This document shows positions 1 to 13,742 of a DNA stretch of 14,754 bases, piece by piece; position 1 is the stretch's first letter; the number at the start of each line of letters is the position of its first letter. A program made the position numbers and the translations under genes. The notes under the pieces were generated by a model that saw nothing but the letters and a program-made list of their open reading frames with translations, had not been told where the DNA came from and searched no databases. The stretch lies in IMG/VR virus record IMGVR_UViG_2660238499_000008. The stretch is one strand, 5' to 3'. Source of the DNA: a virus (Duplodnaviria > Heunggongvirae > Uroviricota > Caudoviricetes).

Positions 1-1260
1 ATGCCAAAACTCACAGACATGCAGATCCGCGCATGGATAAAGGCCGGGGAGCGATTCGAGGGACGCTCTGACGGTAACGGGCTTTATCTTTCATACCGCG
101 AAAACTACCAGACCCCCGTCTGGCGATTCCGCTATAAATTCGCAGGGAAACCCCGCGCCATGCTGATTGGCTCATATGCCGAGCTATCACTATCAAAGGC
201 CAGAGAGACAGCCAAAGAGCTATCGGCTCGCGTTGCGCTGGGCTATGACGTTGCAGGAGAGAAGCAGAAGCGCAAAACCGAAGCACTGGCGAAGATGGAA
301 GCAGAGAAGAACGCTATGCGCGTTTCAGAGCTTGCCGCTGAATACTTTGAGCGTCAGATCCTCCCGCGCTGGAAGCACCCCGATATACTCCGCCGCCGTA
401 TCGACAAAGATATAAACCCATGCATTGGCAGCATGAAGGTAGAGGGCGTGAAACCGCGCCATATCGATGACATGCTGAAAGGTATTGTTGACCGTGGAGC
501 GCCGACCATAGCAACGGACGTGCTGAGATGGACGCGCCGCATATTCGACTACGGAATCAAACGGCACGCGCTGGAGATTAACCCATGTTCAGCCTTTGAG
601 GTGGCAGACGCCGGAGGGAAAGAAGTTGCCCGTGACCGCTGGTTAACCCGCGATGAGTTAATCCAGCTATTCAAAGCCATGCGCACGGCTAAGGGATTCA
701 GTCGCCAGAACGAAATCACGTTCAAATTACTGTTAGCGTTATGCGTCCGCAAAATGGAGTTATGCGCCGCCCGCTGGGAGGAGTTCGATTTTGATAAAGC
801 CGTATGGCATTTACCAGAGGAACGCAGCAAAAACGGCGACGCTATAGACATTCCATTAGCACCGCCAGCCGTCGAATGGCTGAGAGAGCTTAAAACGTTC
901 TCATGCAACAGCGCATGGGTACTGCCAGCCAGAAAGATGCAAAACCGCATGATCCCCCATATTCAGGAAAGCACCCTGCCCGTAGCACTGGCTAAGGTTC
1001 GCGCCGAAATGCCGGACGTGCCGAATTTCACGATTCACGACTTCCGACGCACGGCCCGCACCCATTTAGCAGCGCTGGGCGTTGATCCGGTAGTGGCTGA
1101 AAGATGCCTTAATCACAAAATTAAAGGCGTGGAGGGTATCTATAACCGTCACCAGTATTTTGATGAGCGTAAAGCGGCGCTGGCGCAGTGGTGTGATTTG
1201 CTGGTGGCACTGGAGAGCGGTGAAGATTACAACGTCACGCCGATAAAAAAGGCTAATTAA
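1..1260 (+). CDS. int: Tyrosine recombinase / integrase, P4 / CP4-57 (IntA) type
   Basis: 419-aa ORF. N-terminal arm-binding-like region (MPKLTDMQIRAWIK...GLYLSYREN...WRFRYKFAGK) typical of P4-family integrases. C-terminal catalytic region with H-x-x-R (FTIHDFRRTART) and candidate catalytic Tyr near the C-terminus (GIYNRHQYF). ORF begins exactly at window position 1, so promoter and attL are not visible. Confidence 0.93.
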   Translation: MPKLTDMQIRAWIKAGERFEGRSDGNGLYLSYRENYQTPVWRFRYKFAGKPRAMLIGSYAELSLSKARETAKELSARVALGYDVAGEKQKRKTEALAKMEAEKNAMRVSELAAEYFERQILPRWKHPDILRRRIDKDINPCIGSMKVEGVKPRHIDDMLKGIVDRGAPTIATDVLRWTRRIFDYGIKRHALEINPCSAFEVADAGGKEVARDRWLTRDELIQLFKAMRTAKGFSRQNEITFKLLLALCVRKMELCAARWEEFDFDKAVWHLPEERSKNGDAIDIPLAPPAVEWLRELKTFSCNSAWVLPARKMQNRMIPHIQESTLPVALAKVRAEMPDVPNFTIHDFRRTARTHLAALGVDPVVAERCLNHKIKGVEGIYNRHQYFDERKAALAQWCDLLVALESGEDYNVTPIKKAN

Positions 1261-1354
1261 CCGAACAGATTGAGCCTAGCCCGACGGGGCGAAAAGTGGG
1301 AAGCCTTACCGCCTGGCTCAATTCTTTTTAAGGCAAAGCGTAGAAGGTGACGCA

Positions 1355-2188
1355 ATGGCATTACCAAAAAGGAAATATTACTCGCTTGAAAAAGCAGCGA
1401 AAGAATTGGAATGTGATGTTGATGATTTGCTTCATTATGCATCTTTAGGAATTCTACAGATTTGTGTCTACATAGAAATAAATGAAGATGAGGGCCTCTC
1501 CGAATGCTTCATAGACTCTGATGTTGACGATGAATTACTCGAATCTCTTAGCAGTGATGTTGATCCAACTCCATTAAGATGGGCTACTGAGTTAAATTAT
1601 ATAGTAGAAGATGCAGGGTTTTTCCTTTTGTCGAGAAGAGATGATGATTGTGATTCAAAGATAAACTCAGCAGGGGGATTTTTTGCGCTCAATCATACTG
1701 AGCTATCTACTCCAAAATTTGAAAAAGATAGAAAAATCGAAGTTTTTTCTCTTGGGCACTTGAGAGAGCATTATCACATTGTCAGTGGCAATCAATTTGG
1801 CGGAAGCACGCCAGGATATGAGCCGGGAAGCATTCTTTTTTACAAGCCACGAAAATTCGAAATTCATGACTTTTGCATCACATTGCCTGAGCTAGAGTTA
1901 TTGAAAAAAGGCGGAGAAAATCTACTTCATTCTGCATTTGGTTATAATCACCGTTCCTCTGAACTAATCGGTAGGAAAAAAGAAAATTTCTCAAAGCATA
2001 AAGCTTCCCTAATCAGATCTCTCACTGAACTGGCTTTTGTAAAGGATGGCGGGATTTCAAAACTTTCAATGGAATCAATAGCGGATCAATTACAACGAAA
2101 ATTTATGGACGCAGAGATAGATTATGATGATTTAAGTCCTTCAAATTTAAGGAATTGGTTAGGTACTGGCAGAAAGGATAAAATTTAA
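1355..2188 (+). CDS. Hypothetical protein, AT-rich cargo gene; possible N-terminal HTH, acidic linker, C-terminal domain of unknown function
   Basis: 277-aa ORF with purine-rich RBS (gaaggtga) about 6 nt before the ATG. Visibly AT-rich and different in codon usage from flanking GC-rich genes. N-terminus (YSLEKAAKELECDVDDLLHYASLGILQ) loosely resembles excisionase/AlpA-type HTH (inference only). Long acidic stretch (DSDVDDELLESLSSDVD, RRDDDCD). No recognisable catalytic motif. Confidence 0.65.
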   Translation: MALPKRKYYSLEKAAKELECDVDDLLHYASLGILQICVYIEINEDEGLSECFIDSDVDDELLESLSSDVDPTPLRWATELNYIVEDAGFFLLSRRDDDCDSKINSAGGFFALNHTELSTPKFEKDRKIEVFSLGHLREHYHIVSGNQFGGSTPGYEPGSILFYKPRKFEIHDFCITLPELELLKKGGENLLHSAFGYNHRSSELIGRKKENFSKHKASLIRSLTELAFVKDGGISKLSMESIADQLQRKFMDAEIDYDDLSPSNLRNWLGTGRKDKI

Positions 2189-2203
2189 AACTTTCAAAGT
2201 TTT
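2187..2203. promoter_or_regulatory. 17-bp perfect palindrome AAAACTTTCAAAGTTTT upstream of alpA (operator-like dyad or weak hairpin)
   Basis: Perfect dyad symmetry read directly from the sequence; overlaps the stop codon of the preceding gene and lies about 85 bp upstream of the alpA start. A partial repeat (cgaaagttt) follows at about 2213-2221. Function not demonstrable from sequence. Confidence 0.3.
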
Positions 2204-2287
2204 AAATGCTTATCGAAAGTTTGCTTTGGTTTATGCCTCAATTTTTTAATCATACCCGTAACAACGCAGAAAGGAGTTACGGGAAGC

Positions 2288-2491
2288 ATGAGCACAGAAA
2301 CTATTCCTACCAGCGGCTATATCCGCCGCTTTCGTTTAGCGAGCCATCTTGGCGTCCACGTCACAACAGTAGATCGCTGGGTCCGCGAGAAACGCATTCC
2401 AGCACCCGTCAAATTGGGTGAGAAGATTACCGCCTTTGATGCGGTAGAGATTAACAACTGGCTGGCAGAGCGTCGGGGAAAGGTGGCGTAA
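2288..2491 (+). CDS. alpA: AlpA-family phage transcriptional regulator (HTH)
   Basis: 67-aa ORF with good RBS (aaaggag). Sequence RFRLASHLGVHVTTVDRWVREKRIPAPVKLGEKITAFDAVEINNWLAERRG matches the AlpA / prophage CP4-57 regulator pattern (HTH followed by PxPVKLG and W-acidic C-terminus). Confidence 0.88.
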   Translation: MSTETIPTSGYIRRFRLASHLGVHVTTVDRWVREKRIPAPVKLGEKITAFDAVEINNWLAERRGKVA

Positions 2492-2928
2492 TGGGAAAGA
2501 AAAACCGCCCCGGACAGCAGGCGGCTAACAACATAGATATTCGCGGATCTGATGTTACGCCGACCACCAGCCCGGTACAAGTACCTAAGCGAACCCCAAA
2601 GAAACACCGCGCCCGCGTCTATATGCTGCGTACTGGCGTAGAGGGATGGACAGAAAACGACATTCTGCGCTACTGCCGTCTTTCATCCGGGCGTAATTAT
2701 GCGTCTGAACTGGAGCGCCAGCTTGATATTCAGCTTGAGCGTATAGACGAAAAGAACCCCGACGGGATCGGGTCACATTTACGCTATCGCTTTACCGGGC
2801 GCGGTGACGTTCTAAAAGTTATTCAGCTTGTGAACCACAACGCCACCGCTGGTGGCTATAACGGGCTTTCTAAGCAGGATATCGCGGACATTCTCAATCT
2901 ATACCCGGACAATCTCACCGCCGGCTAA
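2491..2928 (+). CDS. Hypothetical protein with basic, low-complexity N-terminus
   Basis: 145-aa ORF whose ATG overlaps the alpA stop (TAATG), suggesting translational coupling. No family recognised. Confidence 0.6.
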   Translation: MGKKNRPGQQAANNIDIRGSDVTPTTSPVQVPKRTPKKHRARVYMLRTGVEGWTENDILRYCRLSSGRNYASELERQLDIQLERIDEKNPDGIGSHLRYRFTGRGDVLKVIQLVNHNATAGGYNGLSKQDIADILNLYPDNLTAG

Positions 2929-2940
2929 CGGAGACTGAAA

Positions 2941-3774
2941 ATGAACATCGAAAAAAGCAGATTAATTTCTGAGGCCGCCCCTCATCTGAACGCCTATCAG
3001 GGCACAATTAACGGTAATGAATTTGCCGCAATTGTCCCGGTTATTCCTGGTCATATCGGTGGGCGTGAAACCAATATTGTTAGCGCAAAAGCGTTACACA
3101 AAGCGTTGGGCGTGGGAAAAGACTTCTCTACATGGATCACTGATCGCATCTCTGAATATGACTTCACCATTGGGCACGATTACTCAGTCCATAAAACAAT
3201 TTCCCCAAATCTGGGGAAAAGCCCGAATGGCGCGGCTTACAGCAAGATTAAACAGTCTGGCAGACCCGGCAAAGACTATCTGTTAAGTGTCGGAATGGCG
3301 AAAGAACTGGCAATGATCGAACGCACCGAACAGGGCCGCGCTATCCGCCGTTATTTCATCCAGTGCGAGGAAGAATTACAGCGTAGCGTGCCTGAAATCG
3401 CCGCCCGCTATCGTCGCCAGCTAAAAGCCCGTATCAGTGCCGCCAACCTGTTTAAACCGATGTGCGTAGCGCTGGAAAGCGCCCGCGCAGAACAGGGTAA
3501 ACAGACGCAGGCTCGCCACTACAGCAACGAGAGCAACATGATCGCCCGTATCGTGCTGGGTGGCATGACGGCGAAGCAGTGGGCGCAGGCAAATGGCATT
3601 ACTGGCGAACCACGGGACAGCATGAACGCAGCACAGCTTGAACACCTCGCCTATCTCGAAAGCACCAATATCACGTTAATTGATATGGGTATGGGATATG
3701 ACCTGCGTAAAGCCGAGCTAATCCGCCTCTCTCAGCGCTGGTTAGCTAAACATCTGGGGGCTAATCATGCTTAA
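2941..3774 (+). CDS. Phage antirepressor, AntA-like N-terminal domain plus KilA-C (ANT) C-terminal domain
   Basis: 277-aa ORF, RBS ggag 6-7 nt upstream. N-terminal segment (NIVSAKALHKALGVGKDFSTWITDRISEYDFTIGHDY) resembles the AntA domain. Central segment (GRPGKDYLLSVGMAKELAMIERTEQGRAIRRYFIQCEEEL) resembles the KilA-C antirepressor domain. Confidence 0.82.
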   Translation: MNIEKSRLISEAAPHLNAYQGTINGNEFAAIVPVIPGHIGGRETNIVSAKALHKALGVGKDFSTWITDRISEYDFTIGHDYSVHKTISPNLGKSPNGAAYSKIKQSGRPGKDYLLSVGMAKELAMIERTEQGRAIRRYFIQCEEELQRSVPEIAARYRRQLKARISAANLFKPMCVALESARAEQGKQTQARHYSNESNMIARIVLGGMTAKQWAQANGITGEPRDSMNAAQLEHLAYLESTNITLIDMGMGYDLRKAELIRLSQRWLAKHLGANHA

Positions 3775-3945
3775 TGCCGCCATCCAGAATAAAGCCTTTC
3801 CCCTGGCTGGCCTGATGTATGCAAATGTTAACGTCTGGAGCAAAGCAGCCCGCCGCCAGATTGCGACAAATAGCGACGTTTGGAACCTGTCAAAACCTGA
3901 CATTTGCCACCGCCAGATCTTTACAAATCTTGGTGTTTTCGGGAC

Positions 3946-4176
3946 AAGTACGCACGCGCATGAATGCGAAGCTGGCATAACAGTGCCAGCTAATGCCATC
4001 TCCTCATTTTCTCGTCGTGGTGACGAGGAGAGTTTCGAGACCAGTACGCGCACGAAGATTTATTGGGGGTCACTACGCGAGGAAGATTTTCCCATCATCA
4101 CTACACGAGGCGGGAAGATTTTTCTGACATCACCACTAGATGCAGGGAATTTATGCAACAGTACGCGCACGCGCGA
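3946..4176. repeat. Repeat-rich, probably non-coding region: three direct copies of GTACGCRCRCG and three degenerate tandem ~30-bp units (GAAGATTT...TCACTACRCGAGG)
   Basis: GTACGC(A/G)C(A/G)CG at 3948-3959, 4044-4054 and 4161-4175. Tandem ~30-bp units at about 4052-4082, 4081-4110 and 4113-4142. A GC-stem/UUCG-loop hairpin at about 4388-4407 followed by a U-rich tract. The 311-aa ORF the track draws across this region has low-complexity, non-protein-like composition. Confidence 0.5.
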
Positions 4177-4510
4177 AGGTGAGTTTCTGGAGTCCATAAA
4201 AAAGGGCTTGCCGACTATCGCCAACCCGGTTTATGGTTATAGCGCACCAGCAAAATCTGGTGTCGGGATTGGAACCCCGAACACACTAAGGGCGACACAG
4301 ACGCCGAAAGCGTCTTTTTTTGTGTCCATTCACTACGCACATCAAATCAGCGGACTTACCCGTACTGTATCAATGGTGGCGTTAGTGGGGCTACGTTCGC
4401 GTAGGCCGGTTTCCTTTGTGTCCGGTAGTTCCAACCCTGCTAACGTCACCGCCACTATTAAGATTGGAACCTTATGCGGTGACTCCTTAAACACAAAGGA
4501 GGCTGCCATA

Positions 4511-4702
4511 ATGGCTACTACCCCTACCCAAAAACCGCAATTTATCTGGATTATCGCAGCAGTTCGCCGCGATATGCCGACAATTACCGCCAAAATTCAC
4601 CATATCGCCGCAGAGACTGAGCAGGAAGCCCGCCGCATTCTGGCGCGGGATCACGTTTGCTTTTTTGCCGGACGTATTCGCACAGGGGGCGCACATGCTT
4701 AA
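4511..4702 (+). CDS. Small protein, possibly host cell-division-inhibitor Icd-like
   Basis: 63-aa reading frame (MATTPTQKPQFIWIIAAVRRD...ARRILARDHVCFFAGRI) with its own strong RBS (aggagg 8 nt before ATG at 4511), embedded at the 3' end of the long track ORF 3767-4702. The Icd-like assignment is from recalled similarity to small proteins of P4-like prophages and is not verified. Confidence 0.45.
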   Translation: MATTPTQKPQFIWIIAAVRRDMPTITAKIHHIAAETEQEARRILARDHVCFFAGRIRTGGAHA

Positions 4703-4874
4703 TTACTTCCGTGTTGCAGGATGCGCCACCGCCCGGAGCGGCGAATTAGTCGAGTTCGTTTATATCGTTGACGCCCGCAGCGCGATCAGCGCCAAAGCTG
4801 AGGCGCTAAATCAGGCCAGAAATGAACGCCTTTCCCACATCCAGATTACCCGCATTCGTGAGGTGGCGGCATGA
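4695..4874 (+). CDS. Hypothetical small protein
   Basis: 59 aa from ATG at 4695 (track shows an upstream TTG at 4665). The ATG overlaps the stop of the previous gene (ATGCTTAA); G-rich RBS upstream. Start choice uncertain. Confidence 0.4.
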   Translation: MLNYFRVAGCATARSGELVEFVYIVDARSAISAKAEALNQARNERLSHIQITRIREVAA

Positions 4875-5185
4875 GCATGTATAACGATTTAGTGTCCTGC
4901 AACTTTGATGGTTGTACACCTGATGATCTGAACGGAATTGAGAGCTGCGCCAGTGATGCCGTGGATGATTTAATGCTGGGCGTAAGTGCCATTGGTAGCC
5001 TCATGTTCTGGGCGGCTGGTAGCGATGGCTACCCGGAGGAAAGCGCTAAGGCTGATATGTACAGATTAGGCGCAATGCTGGGACATATCGGAGAAGTTGC
5101 GCGGGCGCTGAACGATAGCGCTGCAAACGCCGCATTCTTGCGCTCAATCAGTGAAAAAGAAGCCAAAGGGAGGGCGGGCAAATGA
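4871..5185 (+). CDS. Hypothetical protein
   Basis: 104-aa ORF; ATGA start/stop overlap with the upstream gene; same strand and operon context. Confidence 0.55.
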   Translation: MSMYNDLVSCNFDGCTPDDLNGIESCASDAVDDLMLGVSAIGSLMFWAAGSDGYPEESAKADMYRLGAMLGHIGEVARALNDSAANAAFLRSISEKEAKGRAGK

Positions 5186-5445
5186 ACAGAACTACCATCT
5201 ATCGCCACCCGGCAGAGCTGGAAGCCGAAGCGATGCTATCTCGCAAAGAAGCATACCCGGATGATTTTACGCTGGCAGACCGAACAGCAGAACGCATGAC
5301 CCGCGCCCGCAATGGGCTGGCTCACGTTATGACCGATTTATTACCACTCCTCGAAGTTGAGCAAGCAGCCATCGCGTATTGCTGGCTGAGTAAAGTCCTG
5401 ACGATTGTCGATATAGCCAGAATTGATGCGGAGGGCAGCGCATGA
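5182..5445 (+). CDS. Hypothetical protein
   Basis: 87-aa ORF; ATGA start/stop overlap with the upstream gene. Confidence 0.55.
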   Translation: MNRTTIYRHPAELEAEAMLSRKEAYPDDFTLADRTAERMTRARNGLAHVMTDLLPLLEVEQAAIAYCWLSKVLTIVDIARIDAEGSA

Positions 5446-6068
5446 GCAACGCACCGACCATTAAATCTGGAAATGCCGACTTATTACACGCAGAAGCCAC
5501 ACCGCACGGCGTAAACATCATGACCCGCAATGATGCCGGGATGTATGAGCATGTTGCTCTTATCAGCTACGAGAGCGCCGTGAACGGCCTTGACGCCGGA
5601 GAGTACGACGATAAGCCAGATATCGGATACGCCATTCATTTTGCCGTTGCTGATGGCGGGGCGCGTGGCTGGTTCGACTTCACCGCGCAGCATAACGTCA
5701 CTATGTGGCGCTGGCTGATTGCTGCGACGTTCATTTCTGAGATGAAGCGCGAAAACGGCACAACCACGGTAACTGAGTCTGACGGCACTTCATCGCAGGT
5801 GGCGATTTACTCCAATGGCACGGCGGGGATTGTGGTTTACCCGTTCGCGGAACGTCTGGCGATGGCTAACAACATGGAGGGCGCAATGATTGAGCGATAC
5901 GGCGTCGAACAGGGTACGGAAAAAGCCATTGTTTTTTATCAGGCCATGATCGACACGGAGCGCGGCGAGTTGACCCCGTTCGGGCGTGAAACGCTTGCTG
6001 AACTTCACAACAGCTTTATAGCTGAACTGGATGAAAACGGCTGGCCTGAAATGCCGCTGCCGCACTGA
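5442..6068 (+). CDS. Hypothetical protein
   Basis: 208-aa ORF; ATGA overlap with the upstream gene; no motif recognised. Confidence 0.6.
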   Translation: MSNAPTIKSGNADLLHAEATPHGVNIMTRNDAGMYEHVALISYESAVNGLDAGEYDDKPDIGYAIHFAVADGGARGWFDFTAQHNVTMWRWLIAATFISEMKRENGTTTVTESDGTSSQVAIYSNGTAGIVVYPFAERLAMANNMEGAMIERYGVEQGTEKAIVFYQAMIDTERGELTPFGRETLAELHNSFIAELDENGWPEMPLPH

Positions 6069-6077
6069 GGGGGCGAC

Positions 6078-6419
6078 ATGATTACTAAAAATTTCCGACT
6101 GAATGCGCTGGCGAATAAGTATGCGTCGGCACTGTATAACCACATTACCTCCACCAGCGGCGGTGACTATTTCATGGTTGATGCGGACGGCCTCGCCGTC
6201 CGTGTGGAAATCGTCAATGGAGTAAAAGGCTTTCGCAGCCTGATCGATAGCTACACACTGGCAGCCATGAAAGTGTCCTACCCGCAGTGGGAAACCGTGG
6301 GGATCGCGCTTCTTGAGCGTTGCGTCACTAAGGACGGATTAACTGACGTCGGGCGCGAGATATGGCAAAGCATGGTTAAAGACATGGGCGCGACCGTGGC
6401 AGGGGGCAACCATGCGTAA
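6078..6419 (+). CDS. Hypothetical protein
   Basis: 113-aa ORF with strong RBS (gaggggg); its stop overlaps the primase start (ATGCGTAA). Confidence 0.6.
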   Translation: MITKNFRLNALANKYASALYNHITSTSGGDYFMVDADGLAVRVEIVNGVKGFRSLIDSYTLAAMKVSYPQWETVGIALLERCVTKDGLTDVGREIWQSMVKDMGATVAGGNHA

Positions 6420-9177
6420 TATCGATCTTATCCGCGAAGTGACCAGTGCCGCCGCCGGGCGCTGGCCTTATGTGCTGGCTGGATTGTCTATCGACGTGCC
6501 TGATTCATCGCGCCGCCATTCTCCATGCCCTGCATGTGGTGGAAAAGACCGTTTCAGATTCGACGACAACGGGCGCGGTAGCTTTATCTGCAATCAGTGT
6601 GGCGCTGGTGACGGTTTAGACCTGATTAAGAAGGTGAACAACTGCGACACTACGGAGGCGGCACAGCTTGCCGCTGATGTGCTGGGTATTGATTACCGGG
6701 CAGCGCAAACCGACCCGGTGGCAGCGAGCCATAGAAGAGAGCAACTGGAAGCTGACCGCCAGCAGCGTGAGCAGGAGCGCCAGAAACAGGCAGCAGAGGA
6801 TGCAGAGCAGCGAAGGGCTACGTTTGCCCGTCTGTATGCCGGAATGCGCCAGAGTGCCACACAGGGAGAATCTGATTACCTGCAATCAAAAGGGCTGACC
6901 GGGTTTAACTATCCGGTTATGCCGGATGGTTCGTTATTGCTGGAGCTGGTGGACGAATCCGGCGCAGTGGCAGCAGCGCAAACCATTACACCGCAGGGAG
7001 AGAAGCGACTCCTGACAGGTTCAGCAAAGCGCGGGGCATATCACGCCGTAAACGCACCAGAACAGCCGCAGAGCGTATTAATTGCCGAGGGGCTGGCGAC
7101 GGCCCTGTCCGTTCACCTGATGCGCCCGGACGCGCTTACAGTGGCGGCAATTGACGCCGGGAACCTGATCCACGTTGCCGGAGTAATGCGCCGGAAACAC
7201 CCGCAGTCGCAAATTATCATTGCCGCAGATAACGACCACCAGCAGGACGAACAGGCGAACACGGGCAAAGATGCCGCAGAGAAAGCCGCCTTATCCGTGG
7301 CTGGCTGGGTGGCGCTGCCGCCGACAGACTACAAAGCCGACTGGGACGACTACCGCCAGCAAAACGGGCTGGAAGTCGCTACGGCTGCGTTTAACGATTC
7401 GATGTACCAGATTCAGGGGGAAGCCGTGAAACCGCGATTGCAAGCCATTGAGGGCGGTAAAACTGACCATCCAGAGAAAGACCCACTAAAACCCCACATT
7501 GAGAGCCGAAAAGATGGCGTTTTCTGGGTAACGCCGAAGGTGGACAAGGAAAGCGGGGAGATCATCAACGCTGAAAGCTGGTTATGTTCACCGCTGGAGG
7601 TTATCGGCACGGGACGCGACGACAAAGATCAGTATCTTATTATCTCATGGCTGGCATTTGGTGCAGGCATACCGACAACAGCGGCTATCCCGCTGGCTGA
7701 TATTGGCGAGCGTGAAGGCTGGCGCACCCTGAAAGCTGGTGGCGTCAACGTCACAACGAAAAACAGCCTACGGGCGATTCTTGCCGACTGGTTACAGCGA
7801 AGCGGCTCGCGTGAATTGTGGCGCGTTGCTCATGCTACAGGCTGGCAGTGCGGGGCATACATCATGCCGGACGGGGAAATCATCGGCACACCTGAGCGGC
7901 CTGTTTTGTTCAGCGGGCGCAGTTCAGCCGCTGCCGGGTATACCGTAGCAGGAACGTCGGAAAGCTGGCGTAACAGTGTTGCGCGGCTGGCATACGGTAA
8001 TTACGCGATGATGACAGGCATCGCCGCAGCACTGGCAGCGCCATTAATCGGGGTGGCAGATCGTGACGGATTCGGGATTCATTTTTATGAGCAATCGAGC
8101 GCCGGGAAAACAACCACGCAGAACGTGGCGAGCAGTCTATACGGCAACCCTGATGCCTTGCGCCTGACGTGGTACGGGACGGCGCTGGGGCTGATAAACG
8201 AGGCCGCCGCCCACAATGACGGGCTGATGCCACTGGATGAAGTCGGACAGGGCGCTGACCCGATAAGCGTTTCTCAGTCTGCCTATGCCCTGTTTAACGG
8301 CGTGGGGAAATTGCAGGGAGCAAAGGAAGGAGGCAACCGGGATCTGAAACGCTGGCGCACCGTGGCAATCAGCACCGGGGAAGTGGACTTAGAAACCTTC
8401 ATCGCCACCGCCGGACGCAAGACCAAAGCCGGGCAACTGGTGCGCTTGCTGAATATCCCGTTAAGTAAGGCGGTGCGCTTTCATGAACACCAGACAGGGA
8501 AAGAACACGCCGACGCGCTGAAAGATGCTTATCAGCACCATCATGGCGCTGCCGGGAGGGAGTGGATCAGATGGCTTTCAGACCACCAGCAACAGGCGAT
8601 TGATGTCGTTCGTGAGTGTGAAGCCCGCTGGCGCAGTCTAATCCCTGCCGACTATGGGGAACAGGTTCACCGTGTAGGGGCAAGATTTGCCATTCTGGAG
8701 GCCGCTTTACTGATGGGTGGCGTGGTTACTGGCTGGGATGCTCAAACGTGCCGGGATGCGATACAGCACGCCTATAACGCATGGCTAAAAGAGTTCGGCA
8801 CGGGGAACAAAGAGCACCAGCAGATCATCGAGCAGGCGGAGGCATTTTTAAATGCCTATGGCCTGAGTCGATTCGCGCCGCTGCCTTACGACCCCGCCAG
8901 CCTGCCGATTCATAATCTGGCTGGATACAGGCAGCGCGGAAATCATGACGATTCACCGATAACGTTTTACACGTTCCCCGACACTTTCGATAAGGATATT
9001 GCTAAGGGGTTTAACAGGCAGCAGGTGGCCCGCGTCCTGAAAGAATCGGGGATGCTTACCCCTTCAGCAGACGGAAAAAAATTTCAGAGGAAAAGCCCGC
9101 GCATTCAGGGGAGGCAGATTAACGTTTACGTTTTGCAATTCCTGCCGGATGGGGAGGAAAGCCAGCCAGGGCAATAA
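6412..9177 (+). CDS. Replicative primase-helicase (P4 alpha-like): N-terminal zinc ribbon, TOPRIM domain, C-terminal Walker-A/B NTPase
   Basis: 921-aa ORF. Zinc-ribbon CPACGG...FICNQCG near the N-terminus. TOPRIM-like acidic motifs (IAEGLATA; IIAADNDHQQDE). Walker A-like SSAGKTT and Walker B-like LMPLDEV in the C-terminal half. Immediately followed by an iteron array. Confidence 0.9.
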   Translation: MRNIDLIREVTSAAAGRWPYVLAGLSIDVPDSSRRHSPCPACGGKDRFRFDDNGRGSFICNQCGAGDGLDLIKKVNNCDTTEAAQLAADVLGIDYRAAQTDPVAASHRREQLEADRQQREQERQKQAAEDAEQRRATFARLYAGMRQSATQGESDYLQSKGLTGFNYPVMPDGSLLLELVDESGAVAAAQTITPQGEKRLLTGSAKRGAYHAVNAPEQPQSVLIAEGLATALSVHLMRPDALTVAAIDAGNLIHVAGVMRRKHPQSQIIIAADNDHQQDEQANTGKDAAEKAALSVAGWVALPPTDYKADWDDYRQQNGLEVATAAFNDSMYQIQGEAVKPRLQAIEGGKTDHPEKDPLKPHIESRKDGVFWVTPKVDKESGEIINAESWLCSPLEVIGTGRDDKDQYLIISWLAFGAGIPTTAAIPLADIGEREGWRTLKAGGVNVTTKNSLRAILADWLQRSGSRELWRVAHATGWQCGAYIMPDGEIIGTPERPVLFSGRSSAAAGYTVAGTSESWRNSVARLAYGNYAMMTGIAAALAAPLIGVADRDGFGIHFYEQSSAGKTTTQNVASSLYGNPDALRLTWYGTALGLINEAAAHNDGLMPLDEVGQGADPISVSQSAYALFNGVGKLQGAKEGGNRDLKRWRTVAISTGEVDLETFIATAGRKTKAGQLVRLLNIPLSKAVRFHEHQTGKEHADALKDAYQHHHGAAGREWIRWLSDHQQQAIDVVRECEARWRSLIPADYGEQVHRVGARFAILEAALLMGGVVTGWDAQTCRDAIQHAYNAWLKEFGTGNKEHQQIIEQAEAFLNAYGLSRFAPLPYDPASLPIHNLAGYRQRGNHDDSPITFYTFPDTFDKDIAKGFNRQQVARVLKESGMLTPSADGKKFQRKSPRIQGRQINVYVLQFLPDGEESQPGQ

Positions 9178-9201
9178 TCTTTTTCACGTGCGAGGTTTTT
9201 T

Positions 9202-9462
9202 GTGGTGGTTCAGGTGGTTCAGGTGGTTCAGTAAGTAATTGTTATTGATTTATAATGTTTTTTTGTAAGAAATTGAACCACCACTGAACCACCAAACGGG
9301 TATTTTGAACCACCAGAGAGAAACGGATTATTTTCACTGGCTGGCAGTGAACCACCAAGAAGGGCGACTGAACCACCAGATAAATTTAAAAGGTGGTTCA
9401 GCAAAACCCAGAGTTGGCGCGGCCTAGAGGGGTACTGAACCACCTGAACCACCTGAACCACC
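9202..9462. repeat. Iteron-type origin of replication: 12 copies of the 8-bp core GGTGGTTC / GAACCACC
   Basis: Three tandem 9-bp units GTGGTTCAG at 9205-9231 (forward). AT-rich spacer at about 9232-9272. Six dispersed copies (9274-9282, 9284-9293, 9306-9314, 9347-9356, 9368-9377 reverse; 9392-9401 forward). Three tandem reverse units at 9436-9462, followed by a T-rich/AT tract. Position directly after the primase-helicase gene matches P4 ori/crr-type logic. Confidence 0.82.
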
Positions 9463-9566
9463 AACTTTTTTGTTTATATACCAATAAATCTGGCGAAGGT
9501 GTCCCACAATAAGACGGAGCCGGGTAATCTTCATTAGCAAAACTAATAATTCGAGGTATTCGCAAA

Positions 9567-10028
9567 ATGACAGCACAGATATCAGCCTACGGGCGTTTAG
9601 TCGCAGACCCCCAGACCCGCACCACAACGAACGGTGCAAGCATGGCAATGGGACGGTTAGCGGTGGCACTGCCCTGCCATGCAGCAGAGGGCGGAGAGGT
9701 TACTTTCTGGCTGGGCGTGGTGGCATTCGGCAAACAGGCCGACGCACTGGCAGGACACGTTAAAGGCGATTTAGTCAGTGTTGCCGGAGCGATGCAGATC
9801 AATCAGTGGACGGGCAAGGATGGCGGTACACAGCAAGGTTATCAGGTAGTGGCCGACAGCGTGATCAGCGCCAGAACGGTACGCCCCGGCGGGAAGCGGG
9901 CCGAATCAGTCAAAGCAAGCGGAGCCAGCAGGGGCCACACAACACAATCCGCGCCGGGATGGGAGTTATATAATACCCCTGATGATTTTGACCAACGCCC
10001 ACCATTCGACGATGAAACGCCATTCTGA
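9567..10028 (+). CDS. ssb: Single-stranded DNA-binding protein (SSB), OB-fold with acidic C-terminal tail
   Basis: 153-aa ORF. N-terminal half aligns by eye with bacterial SSB OB-fold (GRLVADPQTRTTTNG; WLGVVAFGKQADALAGHVKGDLVSVAGAMQINQWT). Gly/Ser-rich linker and C-terminal ...FDDETPF resembling the SSB D-D-D-I-P-F tail. Confidence 0.88.
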   Translation: MTAQISAYGRLVADPQTRTTTNGASMAMGRLAVALPCHAAEGGEVTFWLGVVAFGKQADALAGHVKGDLVSVAGAMQINQWTGKDGGTQQGYQVVADSVISARTVRPGGKRAESVKASGASRGHTTQSAPGWELYNTPDDFDQRPPFDDETPF

Positions 10029-10038
10029 GAGGGAAGAT

Positions 10039-10680
10039 ATGAGTACACAACCCACCATTATCGAGTTAGGCAGCTATCGCTGGCCCAGACATCTCGCAAT
10101 ACACGAAGCAGGTCATGCGATAGCCGCATGGTTTTTCGGCATACAGGAGGTAGAAATTGCGTTATCGGGTAATAACCGAGTGGCAAAAACCTACCTTAGC
10201 GGCGATGTTGATGAGTGTGGAGCCGTCGCGGTATGGCACGCCAACTATCCACGGAATGTGGCTGAGGTTAAGTCTTACACCCTCTCGAACGATGACGCCA
10301 GATTACGTCTGATAGACCAGGTATGCCGGGATATGGTTATCTCTCTGGCTGGTATCGTCGCGCAATCACGCTATACGGGGGATGATATTAACGCACTGAT
10401 GGAAACGTCCGGGAAAGCAGACATGAAAAATGTTCGTGATTTATCAGAGGTATACCGGGTGGCTGGTGGAGAGGATGCTGATATACAGAGAATATCACTT
10501 TCCCGTGCTGAGGCGCTGATTGCCCTGAAATGGTGGGATGTTATCGCGCTGGCGAAAATACTGGAGAACCGTAACCATATGCCTGCCAGAAACTTCCAGC
10601 GCATTATGGGTGATATTGACAAGCCTGTACCAAAGCCTATGACGCTGGCTGAACTGGATGAATTGGTGGGTGAAGAATGA
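10039..10680 (+). CDS. Putative zinc metallopeptidase (HExxH motif; ImmA/IrrE-like or FtsH-like HEAGH)
   Basis: 213-aa ORF from ATG at 10039 (RBS gagggaag). Motif LAIHEAGHAIAAW encoded at about 10093-10131 (HEAGH at 10102-10116). Family not resolved and third metal ligand not identified. Confidence 0.55.
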   Translation: MSTQPTIIELGSYRWPRHLAIHEAGHAIAAWFFGIQEVEIALSGNNRVAKTYLSGDVDECGAVAVWHANYPRNVAEVKSYTLSNDDARLRLIDQVCRDMVISLAGIVAQSRYTGDDINALMETSGKADMKNVRDLSEVYRVAGGEDADIQRISLSRAEALIALKWWDVIALAKILENRNHMPARNFQRIMGDIDKPVPKPMTLAELDELVGEE

Positions 10681-11027
10681 AGCCATACATTCTGGCAGCC
10701 GTCCTGATCTCATCGGCACCGGCACTATCTGCTATCCATTGTGGGGGCTTTACTATACAGCCAGACCGTTATCGGACAACGATTAACGGCGATGTGGTTC
10801 ATATTGTTGATGCGCAATTTTACGGCGCACCGCGAGACTTTAGCCAGGCCGCCATAAAGTTATTGCCGGATGCCATTACCACTACCGACAGGCAATACCG
10901 ACTGGAGACGCAGGGAAGCAATGCCTTGCTTGAGTTGATGACCAGAGAAAACCCGCCACGTGTGCTTAATCGTGAGCGCTGCGATGCCGGGCTAACAGGC
11001 TTTTACTGGTACTCGTCTGTGCCGTGA
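10677..11027 (+). CDS. Small exported protein with N-terminal signal peptide
   Basis: 116-aa ORF; start overlaps the stop of the HExxH gene (ATGA). N-terminus MKPYILAAVLISSAPALSA has a positive n-region, hydrophobic core and AxA-like cleavage site. Confidence 0.6.
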   Translation: MKPYILAAVLISSAPALSAIHCGGFTIQPDRYRTTINGDVVHIVDAQFYGAPRDFSQAAIKLLPDAITTTDRQYRLETQGSNALLELMTRENPPRVLNRERCDAGLTGFYWYSSVP

Positions 11028-11096
11028 GGTTCGCACCGAACGCAGGCTAAAATTCTAGACTGTTCTTGACAGATTTTAAACCCAAGTAGCGCTAAA

Positions 11097-11195
11097 CCCG
11101 CGCCAGCAGAGGGCTGGAAACCAGAGCGTGATTTAGGTCGTCCAGAATATTCTGGTTCGCGCCACTGGTACGCAGTACGCAGTCAGGTACGCAGC
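11097..11195 (+). promoter_or_regulatory. Regulatory module copy A: CTGGAAACCAG dyad, perfect 14-bp palindrome CCAGAATATTCTGG, and three GTACGCAG heptamer repeats
   Basis: CTGGAAACCAG at 11114-11124; CCAGAATATTCTGG at 11142-11155; (G)TACGCAG at 11168-11175, 11176-11182 and 11187-11194. About 50 bp upstream of the TerS-like gene. About 85 bp is recognisably duplicated at 11692-11776. Confidence 0.5.
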
Positions 11196-11241
11196 AAAAC
11201 CGCGCATTCAGTTAGGTTTTTTGCGCACAGTGAGCCGTTAA

Positions 11242-11619
11242 ATGAAAAAAAATAGCCAACAATCAAGATCCGGATGGGGTGGCAAGCGGAAAGGCGCAGG
11301 CGCACCGTTGGGCAATACTAATGCCGTCAAACATGGCGAACGCAGTAGGCGGGCATTCTTCCCGTTTGAGGGAGAAGATGCGCTTTCTCCGCTGGTGCGA
11401 AATCGTGCAAGAAACCTCATGATGGCTGAGAGATACGGGCTATTACTGGCGACTAATCCGACGCCGGGAACAGAAGAATGGCGCGAGATGACATTGATTA
11501 ACGGACTCATGGGGCTACATGCCGACAGAATCGCACGGCTTGAGCTGAGTTTAGCGAGATCCGTTTCAATGCAAGCAAGGCGGGATCTGCGAAGGGTTAA
11601 AAAAAACGGCGCATGTTAG
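11242..11619 (+). CDS. Small basic protein with GxPxGNxNAxKHG motif; possible terminase small-subunit-like / packaging-redirecting protein
   Basis: 125-aa ORF. N-terminus GGKRKGAGAPLGNTNAVKHGERS resembles a motif I associate with phage small-terminase-family proteins (recalled, not verified). No large terminase or capsid genes in the element. Confidence 0.5.
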   Translation: MKKNSQQSRSGWGGKRKGAGAPLGNTNAVKHGERSRRAFFPFEGEDALSPLVRNRARNLMMAERYGLLLATNPTPGTEEWREMTLINGLMGLHADRIARLELSLARSVSMQARRDLRRVKKNGAC

Positions 11620-11691
11620 CAATCCGTATAGTCACCGATGTTGAAATACTGGACTGTACTGGACAGACTCAAAGCCCATATGAAGAGAGAA

Positions 11692-11866
11692 CCGCGCCAG
11701 TAGCGGGCTGGAAGCCATATTCGATTTAGGCAGTCCAAAATATTCTGGCTCGCGCCATTGGTTCGCAGTGCGCAAAATAGTGCGCAATTTACAGTAAAAT
11801 ACGCATATTATTTCGCATTCATTTTTGCGCACCGTTCGCAGTTAATGCGCAGTAATTCGCAGGAGG
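11692..11866 (+). promoter_or_regulatory. Regulatory module copy B: diverged duplicate of module A, extended by an array of at least 8 TNCGCA(G) repeats and ending in a strong RBS
   Basis: 11692-11776 aligns by eye with 11097-11181 (roughly three-quarters identity), with the palindrome degenerated to CCAAAATATTCTGG at 11735-11748. Between 11761 and 11860 are repeated ttcgcag / tgcgcaa / ttgcgca / atgcgcag / attcgcag elements. AGGAGG at 11861-11866. Confidence 0.5.
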
Positions 11867-11873
11867 CCCGCCA

Positions 11874-12485
11874 GTGAGAGACAGAACGCGCAGCTATATC
11901 ACCGACCTGCCCCGTATAGGGTTGCCATTCCTTGCGAACATGCGTAGCAGGCTGGCGGACGCCGAACCGGGGACGCAGCTTTATACCCAGACCGAAAGCG
12001 GAACGTTGTATACCTTCCGGCAAGCCGACAGCTACGCCATGACAATCAACGGCGTTACACGGGCAATCAGAACCACGACCACACAAGCCGGGTATGGTGT
12101 GCGGGAATGGTACGTCTGTCCCCACTGCATAAAGCGGGTAGCGAAGCTGTATATCGGCAAAAAAGATATTGGCTGCCGGGGATGCTGGAAACTCCACTAT
12201 AAAAGCCAGAGCGCCGACAGACTGGACAGGATGCGAATGAAGATACGCCAGCAGCGATGCGCGATATGGGGAAGCAATGACCTTGCCAATAATCTGTTTA
12301 ATGACATTCGCATGTTCCCAAAACCAAAGGGGATGCGCTGGGCTACGTTTGACAGGAAGCGGGCAGAGTTATCAGTTATGGAGATGGCTTACTGGCAGGC
12401 ATTCAGTCCGGTAGTAGATAGAATCAGGGGCATGGTTGAGCGTAAGACGGGGAAAGCAGCCAGAGGCATTGGCCTGACTTTGTAA
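11874..12485 (+). CDS. Hypothetical protein with C4 zinc-ribbon (CPHC...CRGC)
   Basis: 203-aa ORF starting at GTG 11874, 7 nt after a perfect AGGAGG (alternative ATG at 11939). CxxC pairs CPHC and CRGC separated by 16 residues. Preceded by regulatory module B. A 6-bp stem hairpin follows the stop (about 12489-12505) but has no U-tract. Confidence 0.65.
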   Translation: MRDRTRSYITDLPRIGLPFLANMRSRLADAEPGTQLYTQTESGTLYTFRQADSYAMTINGVTRAIRTTTTQAGYGVREWYVCPHCIKRVAKLYIGKKDIGCRGCWKLHYKSQSADRLDRMRMKIRQQRCAIWGSNDLANNLFNDIRMFPKPKGMRWATFDRKRAELSVMEMAYWQAFSPVVDRIRGMVERKTGKAARGIGLTL

Positions 12486-12716
12486 AAGCAAAACGCCCGC
12501 ACGGGGCGTCAAGGAACGGGATAGACTTCTGCGACAATTTGCATTCGCCGCCAATATAGCAAGCCGTCCACATCAAGCAATAAACTATCACCGGGAGGGG
12601 GAGGCCAAATCTCTGCAACCCTGAGCCTTAAGGACTGCCCGCCCCATCGTTTTTTTATACCCGCGAAAAATGAAATTTAATCCGGGCGTGTTTCATCCTT
12701 CCAGAGGGTATGACGT

Positions 12717-12902
12717 ATGACACCACGCGAAATAGCCTTATTGACCATCGCCAAACTTGAGCACGGAGGCCACCAGCTTACACTGGCAGATCAACGGGAG
12801 ATAGAACGCTCAGTTAATGCCGATATAGCCCGGCGCGACAGGTTCCGCGAAATGATGCGAGCACCTGCCTACCAGTGGAAGAAGCCAGCGCCGCGCAGGT
12901 AG
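12717..12902 (+). CDS. Hypothetical small basic protein
   Basis: 61-aa ORF (MTPREIALLTIAKLEHGG...); weak RBS; preceded by a T7 run at about 12646-12652. No family recognised. Confidence 0.45.
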   Translation: MTPREIALLTIAKLEHGGHQLTLADQREIERSVNADIARRDRFREMMRAPAYQWKKPAPRR

Positions 12903-13134
12903 ATATGGGATTATTCCACATGTAACTATACGAGCAATCAGCCCATTAGCTGCCTGCGTGGGAAAGGCACCACCCCGGCGGAAAACTCAGGCGGCTTGCA
13001 TGGTTACAATGAATTGCTATTACAGGCCAGAGAGTCTGATAATCCTGAGCAGGCCGAGATCCACAATTTCCTGATGCTGGATATTGAACGCCGGGTTTAC
13101 GACCTGAGCCGCATCAACGGCAGATTGCAGGCTA

Positions 13135-13494
13135 TTAACTGACCCGCATGTATTCACCTGATATTGCGTTATCAGCGCCGCCATTATCGCGCACAACGGC
13201 ACATTGACCGGGTAAACCGTAGCGAACGACCGTTGCGTTAGTTTTACCGCCACGCTTTACCTGACGAGATTCATACACTGTCACACGTTCCAGCAGCCCC
13301 CCGGCAACCATGCTTTCAAGAGTTCGCCGGGTGGATTCGAGCGGGTGGCGCTTATCGAACGACACCATGCCATGAAGAAGGTAGGCCACGCCCGACACAT
13401 CGAACGGCGGCGCACCAATCTCACCTGTCACCCATTCGAGGTTATCCGGCTCAAAGTAGCTGAGTATCTCTTTTTTGCGGCTGGTCATTCTCAT
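13135..13494 (-). CDS. Hypothetical protein, convergent to the rest of the element; possible winged-helix-like segment
   Basis: 119-aa ORF, the only convincing minus-strand gene. RBS aaggaa upstream of the ATG. Segment HPLESTRRTLESMVAGGLLERV is reminiscent of a recognition helix/wing, which is speculative. Confidence 0.5.
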   Translation of the reverse strand: MRMTSRKKEILSYFEPDNLEWVTGEIGAPPFDVSGVAYLLHGMVSFDKRHPLESTRRTLESMVAGGLLERVTVYESRQVKRGGKTNATVVRYGLPGQCAVVRDNGGADNAISGEYMRVS

Positions 13495-13742
13495 GGCTGG
13501 CTGATTCCTTATTGTGGGATAGCGGTATCATACAATAAGGCGCAAAAGATAAGAGGCCAGAACAGCAAGCATGAGAGCATAAAATGAGCAGCCAAAGACA
13601 GCACCTCAAAATACCGTGTACACAAGGGTGTACCTACTTAGAAAACGCATTACAAGGAATCCAGTAACCACGCGGCCTAGAGACTCCTACTCAATAAACA
13701 GATTCAGACTCGTAACGCCAATTCTTACTTTTCAGCCTTCAC

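Follow-up and report, generated by a model that had tools for sequence, protein, structure and literature searches.

A small-terminase-like N-terminal arm on a candidate packaging accessory protein of enterobacterial phage satellites

The window, that is, the whole 14,754-nucleotide stretch of viral DNA analysed here (IMG/VR record IMGVR_UViG_2660238499_000008), holds a phage satellite with the gene order of a phage-inducible chromosomal island (PICI). This report concerns one gene in its post-origin part, hereafter the target gene, which encodes 125 aa and is set between two related, repeat-bearing leaders. A zinc-ribbon gene, a cohesive-end (cos) site and a PerC-like gene follow it (Table 1). 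Gram-negative PICIs spread virulence and defence genes. To our knowledge only one family of packaging-hijack proteins, Rpp, is understood so far, and it acts solely on lambda-type terminases. An earlier sequence-only reading of the window had noticed a GxPxGNxNAxKHG motif near the N-terminus of the target protein. It proposed a lone relative of small terminases (TerS) that redirects helper packaging in an element without capsid or large terminase (TerL) genes. That reading is partly supported by the analysis below, in which the target protein is tentatively regarded as an accessory factor of the packaging module and a helper-type cos is located in the island.

The target open reading frame (ORF) is a genuine gene under purifying selection. 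In a search of 5.8 billion proteins its homologues formed 108 clusters at 90% identity, pairwise dN/dS against ten homologues was 0.06-0.38, and a long minus-strand ORF that overlaps the gene is interrupted by stop codons in homologous copies. The homologue clusters come from Enterobacterales only (Escherichia, Klebsiella, Kluyvera, Serratia, Dickeya, Pectobacterium, Salmonella, Rosenbergiella and Brenneria) and every named one is a 'hypothetical protein'. The gene is rare among complete E. coli genomes (42/5426). Residues 20-32 of the protein are GAPLGNTNAVKHG, so that ORF and motif are present exactly as the sequence-only reading had them. In an alignment of 36 sequences (A1), the first ~40 residues are near-invariant (QQSRSGWGGKRxGAGAPxGNTNAVKHGERSRRAFFP), with G20, A21, P22, N25, N27, V29, G32, E33 and S35 unchanged throughout, and the remainder is far more variable.

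The best library matches of the target protein are TerS models, confined to ~20-25 residues and well below threshold. NF040601 scored 19.4 bits (cut-off 120) over residues 9-33 only, and the phrog_1889 TerS model gave E 0.0026 over residues 14-33 only. Pfam returned no TerS match, and no full-length profile match to a TerS above a curated threshold was found. Alignment A1 was compared by hhalign with a Streptococcus-phage TerS of the PF10668/YqaS type, encoded directly upstream of TerL, and with its profile. The probabilities were 94.9% and 94.7% (E 4e-8 and 6e-8; 37 columns), and the alignment spans only target residues 6-44, which correspond to the TerS linker segment after the helix-turn-helix (HTH). 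A profile search of 1.84 billion representatives yielded 243 proteins at E <= 0.001, ~28 of them true family members; the others are small proteins that have the N-terminal motif alone in common with the target family. When 114 motif-carriers were compared with PHROGs, 34 matched phrog_1889, 14 phrog_509 and 13 phrog_9231, all three annotated 'terminase small subunit'. Matches by tblastn against 50,697 phage genomes were mostly annotated TerS genes of Streptococcus phages, together with the leftmost, unnamed ORFs of two genomes, of Faecalibacterium and Haloarcula tailed viruses, and included no full-length homologue of the target protein. Judged by these profile comparisons, the motif is a genuine small-terminase signature, and the homology of the target protein ends at residue 44.

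An AlphaFold2 model of the target protein (pLDDT 77.6) shows residues 1-28 as disordered, followed by helices at 30-38, 50-71 and 77-123 that form a hairpin, and neither an HTH nor a winged HTH was found in it. From the model, the Gly/Asn-rich, basic N-terminal arm (~35 residues) is probably disordered on its own, and the helical hairpin is likely to be an oligomerisation or coiled-coil module. The model of the Streptococcus TerS has an HTH at 2-38, a disordered motif region at 47-83, a short helix and long helices. After the motif the two models thus agree in having a disordered motif, a short helix and long antiparallel helices; this matching order is weak, model-based evidence in favour of a packaging role. 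No TerS stood among the top matches listed in three fold searches (PDB and viral), and PDB sequence searches with the target protein (phmmer with a single sequence and with a profile) gave chance lectin matches only. The claim that the motif marks a TerS fold therefore holds for the signature and not for the fold. An HTH is not universal among small terminases, those of HK97, P22 and 44RR having no defined DNA-binding domain (PMC11331095). Because HK97 TerS also does without a folded DNA-binding domain, its absence from the target protein does not by itself exclude TerS function. By gene position the target gene differs from a TerS gene, since the window has no TerL and 15 relatives encode a separate DUF2280 TerS beside it.

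The comparison of gene neighbourhoods drew on species-representative genomes (39 loci) and IMG/VR (18 loci). Where the locus is enterobacterial, the target gene lies in the post-origin region, toward the end opposite the integrase, and the flank of most such loci contains a recognisable P4-type primase, integrase or both. Fifteen loci (L046:8436-8909, L049:8403-8912 and 13 others) carry a 157-169-aa DUF2280 gene (PF10045, E 3e-47) directly after the target gene or, once, before it. Homologues of DUF2280 in 324 phage genomes lie directly before TerL and overlap it, and some are annotated TerS. Because of this position DUF2280 is, on gene order, a small terminase, though Pfam lists its function as unknown, and the islands bearing it are putative satellites of the pac type that encode a TerS themselves. 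One phage gene located before a DUF2280 TerS was considered as a relative of the target protein and rejected, since hhalign shows no relation. In L012, a Terminase_2 N-terminal (HTH) fragment of ~62 aa (9703-9903) lies just upstream of the target homologue and overlaps its start; it is either a recombination scar or part of a split arrangement of DNA-binding domain and arm protein. Given these neighbours and the cos described below, the target gene would be a constant member of the packaging module regardless of the determinant that a satellite relies on; with a DUF2280 TerS adjoining it in 15 related islands, it is not the module's TerS. What had been taken for a lone TerS-like gene is accordingly better described as encoding a partner.

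The cargo around the target gene is highly variable and includes toxin-antitoxin-like ORFs (by eye), DprA and phosphoribosyltransferase genes, phage-like morons, a zinc-ribbon gene, a PerC-like gene and a 119-aa reverse-strand gene. In many loci the last two accompany the target gene, in no fixed order. The target gene itself is kept across islands that differ in integrase, origin iterons and cargo, and this retention supports a packaging role because the pattern is unlike that of the variable cargo. In L046 the packaging module is followed, at 9501-11035, by cargo genes for a DprA/Smf-like (DNA_processg_A) and then a phosphoribosyltransferase-like protein, which may be a defence pair.

The post-origin region of the window gave one short, strong blastn match to phages (E 1e-20), at the cos listed in Table 1. 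The matched sequences are the genome ends of SfV, SfII, SfIV, SfI, ST64B and 118970_sal3 and the annotated phiP27 cos-site. Against the joined right and left ends of SfV the island sequence is 87% identical over 99 nt, and its 10-nt cohesive-end core, TGCCCGCCCC at 12636-12645, aligns with the phiP27 cos-site CGCCCGCCCC, so that both genome ends and the core of an SfV/phiP27/ST64B-type cos are present. Phages of the SfV/phiP27 type have the HK97-like order HNH endonuclease, cos, TerS (Terminase_4/P27 family), TerL. Patterns of lambda cosN and P4 cos matched nothing beyond chance. These alignments predict that the window island is a cos-type satellite of SfV/phiP27-type (HK97-like, HNH-dependent) phages, with helper-mediated transfer. 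The flanking repeat arrays had been put forward as recognition sites; by alignment it is the cos, not these repeats, that is the demonstrable helper-derived packaging site. Of the loci with the target gene, three (the window, L001 and L004) have an SfV-type cos, set 260-970 bp beyond the stop codon of that gene, and no other has one. When L047 and L005 were searched for sites derived from a helper, the top matches were shared cargo genes only. A similar cos sequence occurs in 339 E. coli genomes. E. coli S43 carries an island 99% identical to that of the window (~13.9 kb, between yicC and dinD) and has the island's copy of the cos only, with no resident helper visible at this sensitivity.

The homology of the motif to a TerS segment, the DUF2280, Terminase_2 and cos neighbours and the post-origin position lead us to suggest, tentatively, that the target protein is an accessory factor acting at the terminase step of helper packaging. 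It would carry a TerS-homologous arm on a helical, probably oligomeric scaffold, without the DNA-binding HTH of the PF10668/YqaS-type terminases. It would either favour the packaging of satellite DNA or interfere with the helper terminase, working alongside the satellite's own packaging determinant, namely a DUF2280 TerS in many relatives and an SfV/phiP27-type cos here. The gene and its conservation, the homology of the motif, the architecture, the cos and the neighbourhoods are shown by the data; the packaging role, the binding partner and the oligomerisation we infer from them. In PICIs, packaging and interference genes are located past the origin (PMC6739421, PMC6092414), as is the target gene, and PLE satellites offer a precedent in that they pair mimicry of pac with a TerL inhibitor, Gpi, and specifiers, GpsA/GpsB (PMC11417361). 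The packaging-hijack role given by the sequence-only reading is thus plausible, the gene being in the packaging module of a satellite with a helper-type cos, and it is unproven.

Several observations weigh against this proposal. A same-site island in E. coli 2017.17.03CC (L069; NZ_AP027829.1) lacks 11054-12496 except for a 42-nt remnant of the zinc-ribbon gene, is 96% identical to the window on both sides of the deletion and keeps the cos and the PerC-like gene; the target gene can therefore be lost. The match between island and SfV extends ~45 nt past the cos core, nearly to the start of the phage terS; the TerS site of HK97 occupies +15 to +29 (PMC11331095). The helper's own terminase may for this reason recognise the island unaided, with no redirecting factor needed. 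The likeness to SfV covers the sequence to either side of the core, and a distinct cosB is accordingly not evident in the island. Its cos is probably self-sufficient. The likely helper TerS (Terminase_4/P27 family) is unrelated to the target protein (hhalign probability for SfV TerS, 0.9%), and co-assembly by homology is hence not expected. No enterobacterial phage TerS with the motif was found by tblastn among the 50,697 phage genomes. Similarity to any TerS is limited to 39 residues, and the fold searches yielded generic hairpins only. The post-primase region is a known hotspot of defence cargo (PMC11364771). Finally, motif-only small proteins adjoin acyl-CoA dehydrogenase or CoA-transferase genes in Chloroflexota and an Alphaproteobacterium, so that the motif is not exclusive to packaging.

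These motif-only proteins were found in seven loci of Chloroflexota/Dehalococcoidia and Rhizomicrobium (L030, L032, L033, L036, L037, L038 and L042), where proteins with GAGAPxGNxNAxKHG alone lie beside genes for acyl-CoA dehydrogenase, CoA-transferase III or a HAD hydrolase and not beside genes of mobile elements. The idea that the distant motif-only proteins lie beside integrases was rejected, since seven of the ten neighbouring genes scanned are metabolic and three have no Pfam match; the contigs of distant homologues are too short to inform. Some motif-only proteins (e.g. P0170) unite an HGG motif and the GAPxGN motif in one chain.

Leader A precedes the target gene and leader B the next gene, and both have a doubled CTGGAC-like motif, a palindrome and NCGCA heptamers. 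They are paralogous (78% identical over ~200 bp), the repeats being their 3' parts. Read by eye, several related loci have a CTGGAC-repeat-like motif ahead of the DUF2280 TerS gene; a regular-expression scan for it returned nothing. The heptamer GTACGCA has a density of 1.47/kb in the 2 kb upstream of the target gene vs 0.15/kb elsewhere (~10-fold enrichment). Its arrays occur upstream of the gene in ~24/41 related loci, across genera, typically as three to five direct copies spaced 13/8/13 bp and then one inverted copy. The heptamer is conserved while the origin iterons differ between islands (TGAACCAC, TGAACCAA, GAACCGAC, AGGGATA and GAGACAAC). The arrays are absent from the SfV genome and are therefore not helper-derived. 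As its N-terminal arm is invariant, the target protein is a candidate binder of these arrays.

Two loci (L005:9000-10000 and L009:9100-9960) have several different heptamer arrays crowded into ~0.8-1 kb upstream of the target homologue (CTGAACCGAC, GGTACGCA, GTTTCCAC, GGTCGGAC, GTAACCA and GGTTCGCA), each with direct copies and then an inverted copy. The array region of L005 is non-coding, and one of its sets is identical to the iteron found at the origin of another island type. A GTAACCA array occupies 9130-9215 of L009, and among the arrays there, just upstream of the target homologue, a 137-aa protein (9229-9642) has a C-x10-C-x10-C-x2-HGG zinc-ribbon-like motif.

The arrays are central to the main rival explanation, according to which the target protein is a sequence-specific DNA-binding regulator or architectural protein that, as an oligomer, binds the phased GGTACGCA/NCGCA arrays beside the gene with its invariant arms. 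It would control transcription of its own and neighbouring late or packaging genes, or act at a replication-linked cis site, leaving the terminase untouched. The enrichment of GTACGCA and its stereotyped arrangement argue for this, as does the conservation of the heptamer despite differing iterons, which parallels the invariance of the arm. An origin outside the helper and two paralogous leaders before two successive genes, as expected of co-regulated promoters, also fit, and the reading of DNA by a disordered N-terminal arm is known from HK97 TerS (PMC11331095). We nevertheless consider a regulator rather unlikely. The distance between array and gene varies from -50 to -660 bp, and in Pectobacterium the array sites lie beside the origin, 2-4 kb from the target gene, with cargo between. 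Two Rosenbergiella loci (L007 and L008) have the target gene without an array. The model of the protein has no recognisable DNA-binding fold, and a scan for promoters and terminators gave nothing above shuffled expectation, with no consensus promoter on the gene's strand near the arrays.

The target gene could also be unrelated accessory cargo of the post-primase region, serving anti-phage, anti-defence or host-takeover functions, in which case the motif would be a short peptide module, widely reused and here with a different partner. This would agree with the immunity hotspot described downstream of pri in PICIs (PMC11364771), the variability of the neighbouring cargo, the occurrence of the motif in non-mobile contexts and the loss of the gene in L069. 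Yet PADLOC models matched neither the target protein nor nine neighbouring ORFs, none of the cargo genes nearby is retained nearly as widely as the target gene, whose position is linked to that of a TerS or cos, and the only annotated proteins with the motif are small terminases, so that we regard cargo as unlikely. Very improbable, in our view, is the sequence-only reading in its strongest form, a minimal TerS of the HK97 kind (arm and hairpin ring, no HTH) that replaces the helper TerS and recruits the helper TerL to a site in the arrays. Such a protein would explain the TerS-type arm motif, the arm and hairpin architecture that recalls the terminases without a defined DNA-binding domain, and the repeat arrays on either side of the gene, which recall the pac sites often found around terS. 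Against it, the full DUF2280 TerS encoded alongside in 15 relatives would make a second TerS redundant, and the window island carries a helper-type cos instead. TerS models score far under their cut-offs, no TerS appears among the top fold-search matches listed, and no phage has a full-length homologue.

The target family, not characterised before, is tied to the packaging module of many enterobacterial satellites, both pac-type with their own TerS and cos-type that copy the SfV/phiP27 cos. If the target protein acts on the terminase, it would show satellites exploiting a second major helper class, and would assign a function to a short arm motif common to many small terminases. The cos match makes a concrete, testable prediction of the helper type of the island. 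A bolder and doubtful extension is that the protein founds a new class of satellite packaging factor, an HTH-less oligomer whose TerS-type arm binds the phased GGTACGCA arrays. It would cooperate with the satellite's DUF2280 TerS or with a stolen HK97-type cos, and would tag satellite concatemers for the helper motor or exclude helper DNA. Such a protein would do for helpers beyond the reach of Rpp what Rpp does for its own.

The island takes up nearly all of the window. Its remainder is in the order integrase, int-alpA RNA, AlpA, AntA, Ash-family ORF, primase, iteron origin, SSB and a string of genes of unknown function. Searches with Pfam, PHROGs and NCBIfam found no capsid, portal, protease or terminase genes in the window, in agreement with the sequence-only reading. 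With an integrase at one end, AlpA, a pri-rep gene and iteron origin, a fitting size, no capsid or terminase genes and a specific att site, the island is, by gene content, organised as a Gram-negative PICI (PMC6092414). The origin consists of three tandem GGTGGTTCAG iterons, an AT-rich stretch and then eight inverted TGAACCACC copies, including a tandem triplet. A search for att repeats with a 12-nt seed found none, and the att core was taken instead from L047 (an IMG/VR metagenome viral contig of 9677 bp). There, at 7721-8137, the right end of the island meets, through the core, its left end and integrase. Such an attP-type junction shows that the contig derives from a tandem array, a concatemer or an excised circle. 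Rfam matches in the window comprise int-alpA RNA (61.8 bits), isrK (76 bits) and C4 antisense RNA (81.3 bits), all above the gathering score, and c4 a1b1 targets at 43.5 bits, just under the gathering score of 46.7; the four spans are 1269-1334, 4231-4283, 4244-4320 and 4369-4456. Taken together, the four matches point to a P1/P7/P4-type antisense immunity module inside the Ash-family ORF.

The zinc-ribbon neighbour had no Pfam, PHROG, NCBIfam, PADLOC or PDB match, and its homologues are all 'hypothetical' and from Enterobacterales only. It was considered as a relative of the SfV HNH endonuclease or of a 203-aa phage gene, and shows no similarity to either. The sole library match of the PerC-like gene is phrog_7271 (unknown function); in related E. 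coli loci the RefSeq name of the 61-aa gene is 'PerC family transcriptional regulator'.

Table 1. Positions of the target gene and of other features of the island in the window
Feature	Position	Strand	Details
Satellite	1..13708	+	Integrase to attR core CTCAATAAACAGATTCAGA (13690-13708); between yicC and dinD
Integrase	1-1260		
Ash-family ORF	3767-4702		C4 antisense RNA and isrK matches within span
Primase	6412-9177		921 aa; Zn-ribbon/Toprim/DUF927, P4-type
Replication origin	9204..9462		GGTGGTTCAG / CTGAACCACC iterons flanking AT-rich stretch; downstream of primase gene
Leader copy A	11028..11241	+	TTCTAGACTGTTCTTGACAG 11053-11072; palindrome CCAGAATATTCTGG 11142-11155; 3 x TACGCAG 11169-11194
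Target gene	11242..11619	+	ATG start; 125 aa
Target codons 6-44	11257..11373	+	Sole part homologous to small terminases (hhalign, NF040601, phrog_1889)
Leader copy B	11620..11873	+	TACTGGACTGTACTGGACAG 11647-11666; CCAAAATATTCTGG 11735-11748; nine NCGCA heptamers 11762-11862
Zinc-ribbon neighbour	11874..12485	+	203 aa; CxxC...CxxC zinc ribbon; fills slot held by DUF2280 TerS in related islands
cos junction of SfV/SfII/ST64B/phiP27-type phages	12593..12690	+	Between zinc-ribbon and PerC-like genes; ~1 kb downstream of target gene
PerC-like gene	12717..12902	+	61 aa; directly after cos, position of terS in phages
119-aa gene	13135-13494	-	No library match

Among known systems, the closest comparison is with Rpp (RppA, RppB and RppC of E. 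coli PICIs such as EcCICFT073), proteins of 144-153 aa with an N-terminal winged HTH like that of lambda Nu1 (PDB 6HLK, 6HN7; PMC6739421). Like Rpp, the target protein is small, is encoded after the origin in a capsid-less Gram-negative PICI packaged through cos, is related to part of a TerS, has C-terminal helices that could oligomerise and is proposed to act at the terminase step. Unlike Rpp, it has no HTH, and only the linker motif is in common, with a different TerS family. Membership in Rpp was rejected, since phmmer and profile searches found no similarity to any PDB chain (6HLK and 6HN7 should be included), and no RppC-like ORF was found among the other ORFs of the window searched against PDB chains. 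Rpp targets the TerS of lambda and phi80, HK97 being insensitive, whereas the island cos is of the SfV/phiP27 (HK97-like) kind, and the likeness of this cos to that of the phage extends to either side of the cut, unlike in EcCICFT073, whose cosB differs. The suggested match to the strategy of the E. coli PICIs consequently fails, in that the protein has no sequence similarity to a solved chain, RppC included, and the helper would be HK97-like and not lambda-like.

With the PF10668/NF040601 (YqaS/YjcR-type) small terminases the target protein has in common a W..R..W-GAPxGNxNAxKHG-(x)n-F(F/L)P segment. Those terminases have 220-245 aa, an HTH first, two copies of the motif and a beta-hairpin within the core, and are encoded before TerL; the target protein starts at the motif, has one copy of it, no detectable helix homology and no adjoining TerL. 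Like HK97 TerS, whose arm is disordered without DNA, it is predicted to have a flexible N-terminal arm and a helical core and no folded DNA-binding domain (PMC11331095), although neither sequence nor detectable fold matches. SaPI Ppi and the PLE proteins Gpi, GpsA and GpsB are likewise small proteins of satellite packaging modules that act on the helper TerS or TerL, and they coexist with a satellite TerS or with pac/cos mimicry (PMC11417361); the likeness is a functional analogy only. In copying the helper cos junction closely, the island resembles SaPIbov5, of HNH-dependent cos phages, and the E. coli HE-PICI 11capE (PMC10111431). This last likeness concerns the island, not the target protein. 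The literature searched contained no description of the target family, of a PICI with an SfV/phiP27-type cos or of the pairing of the gene with DUF2280, and we know of no Gram-negative PICI with a cos of this type. A protein of the satellite packaging module is a known kind; the target family, its architecture and the helper class are new to the literature searched.

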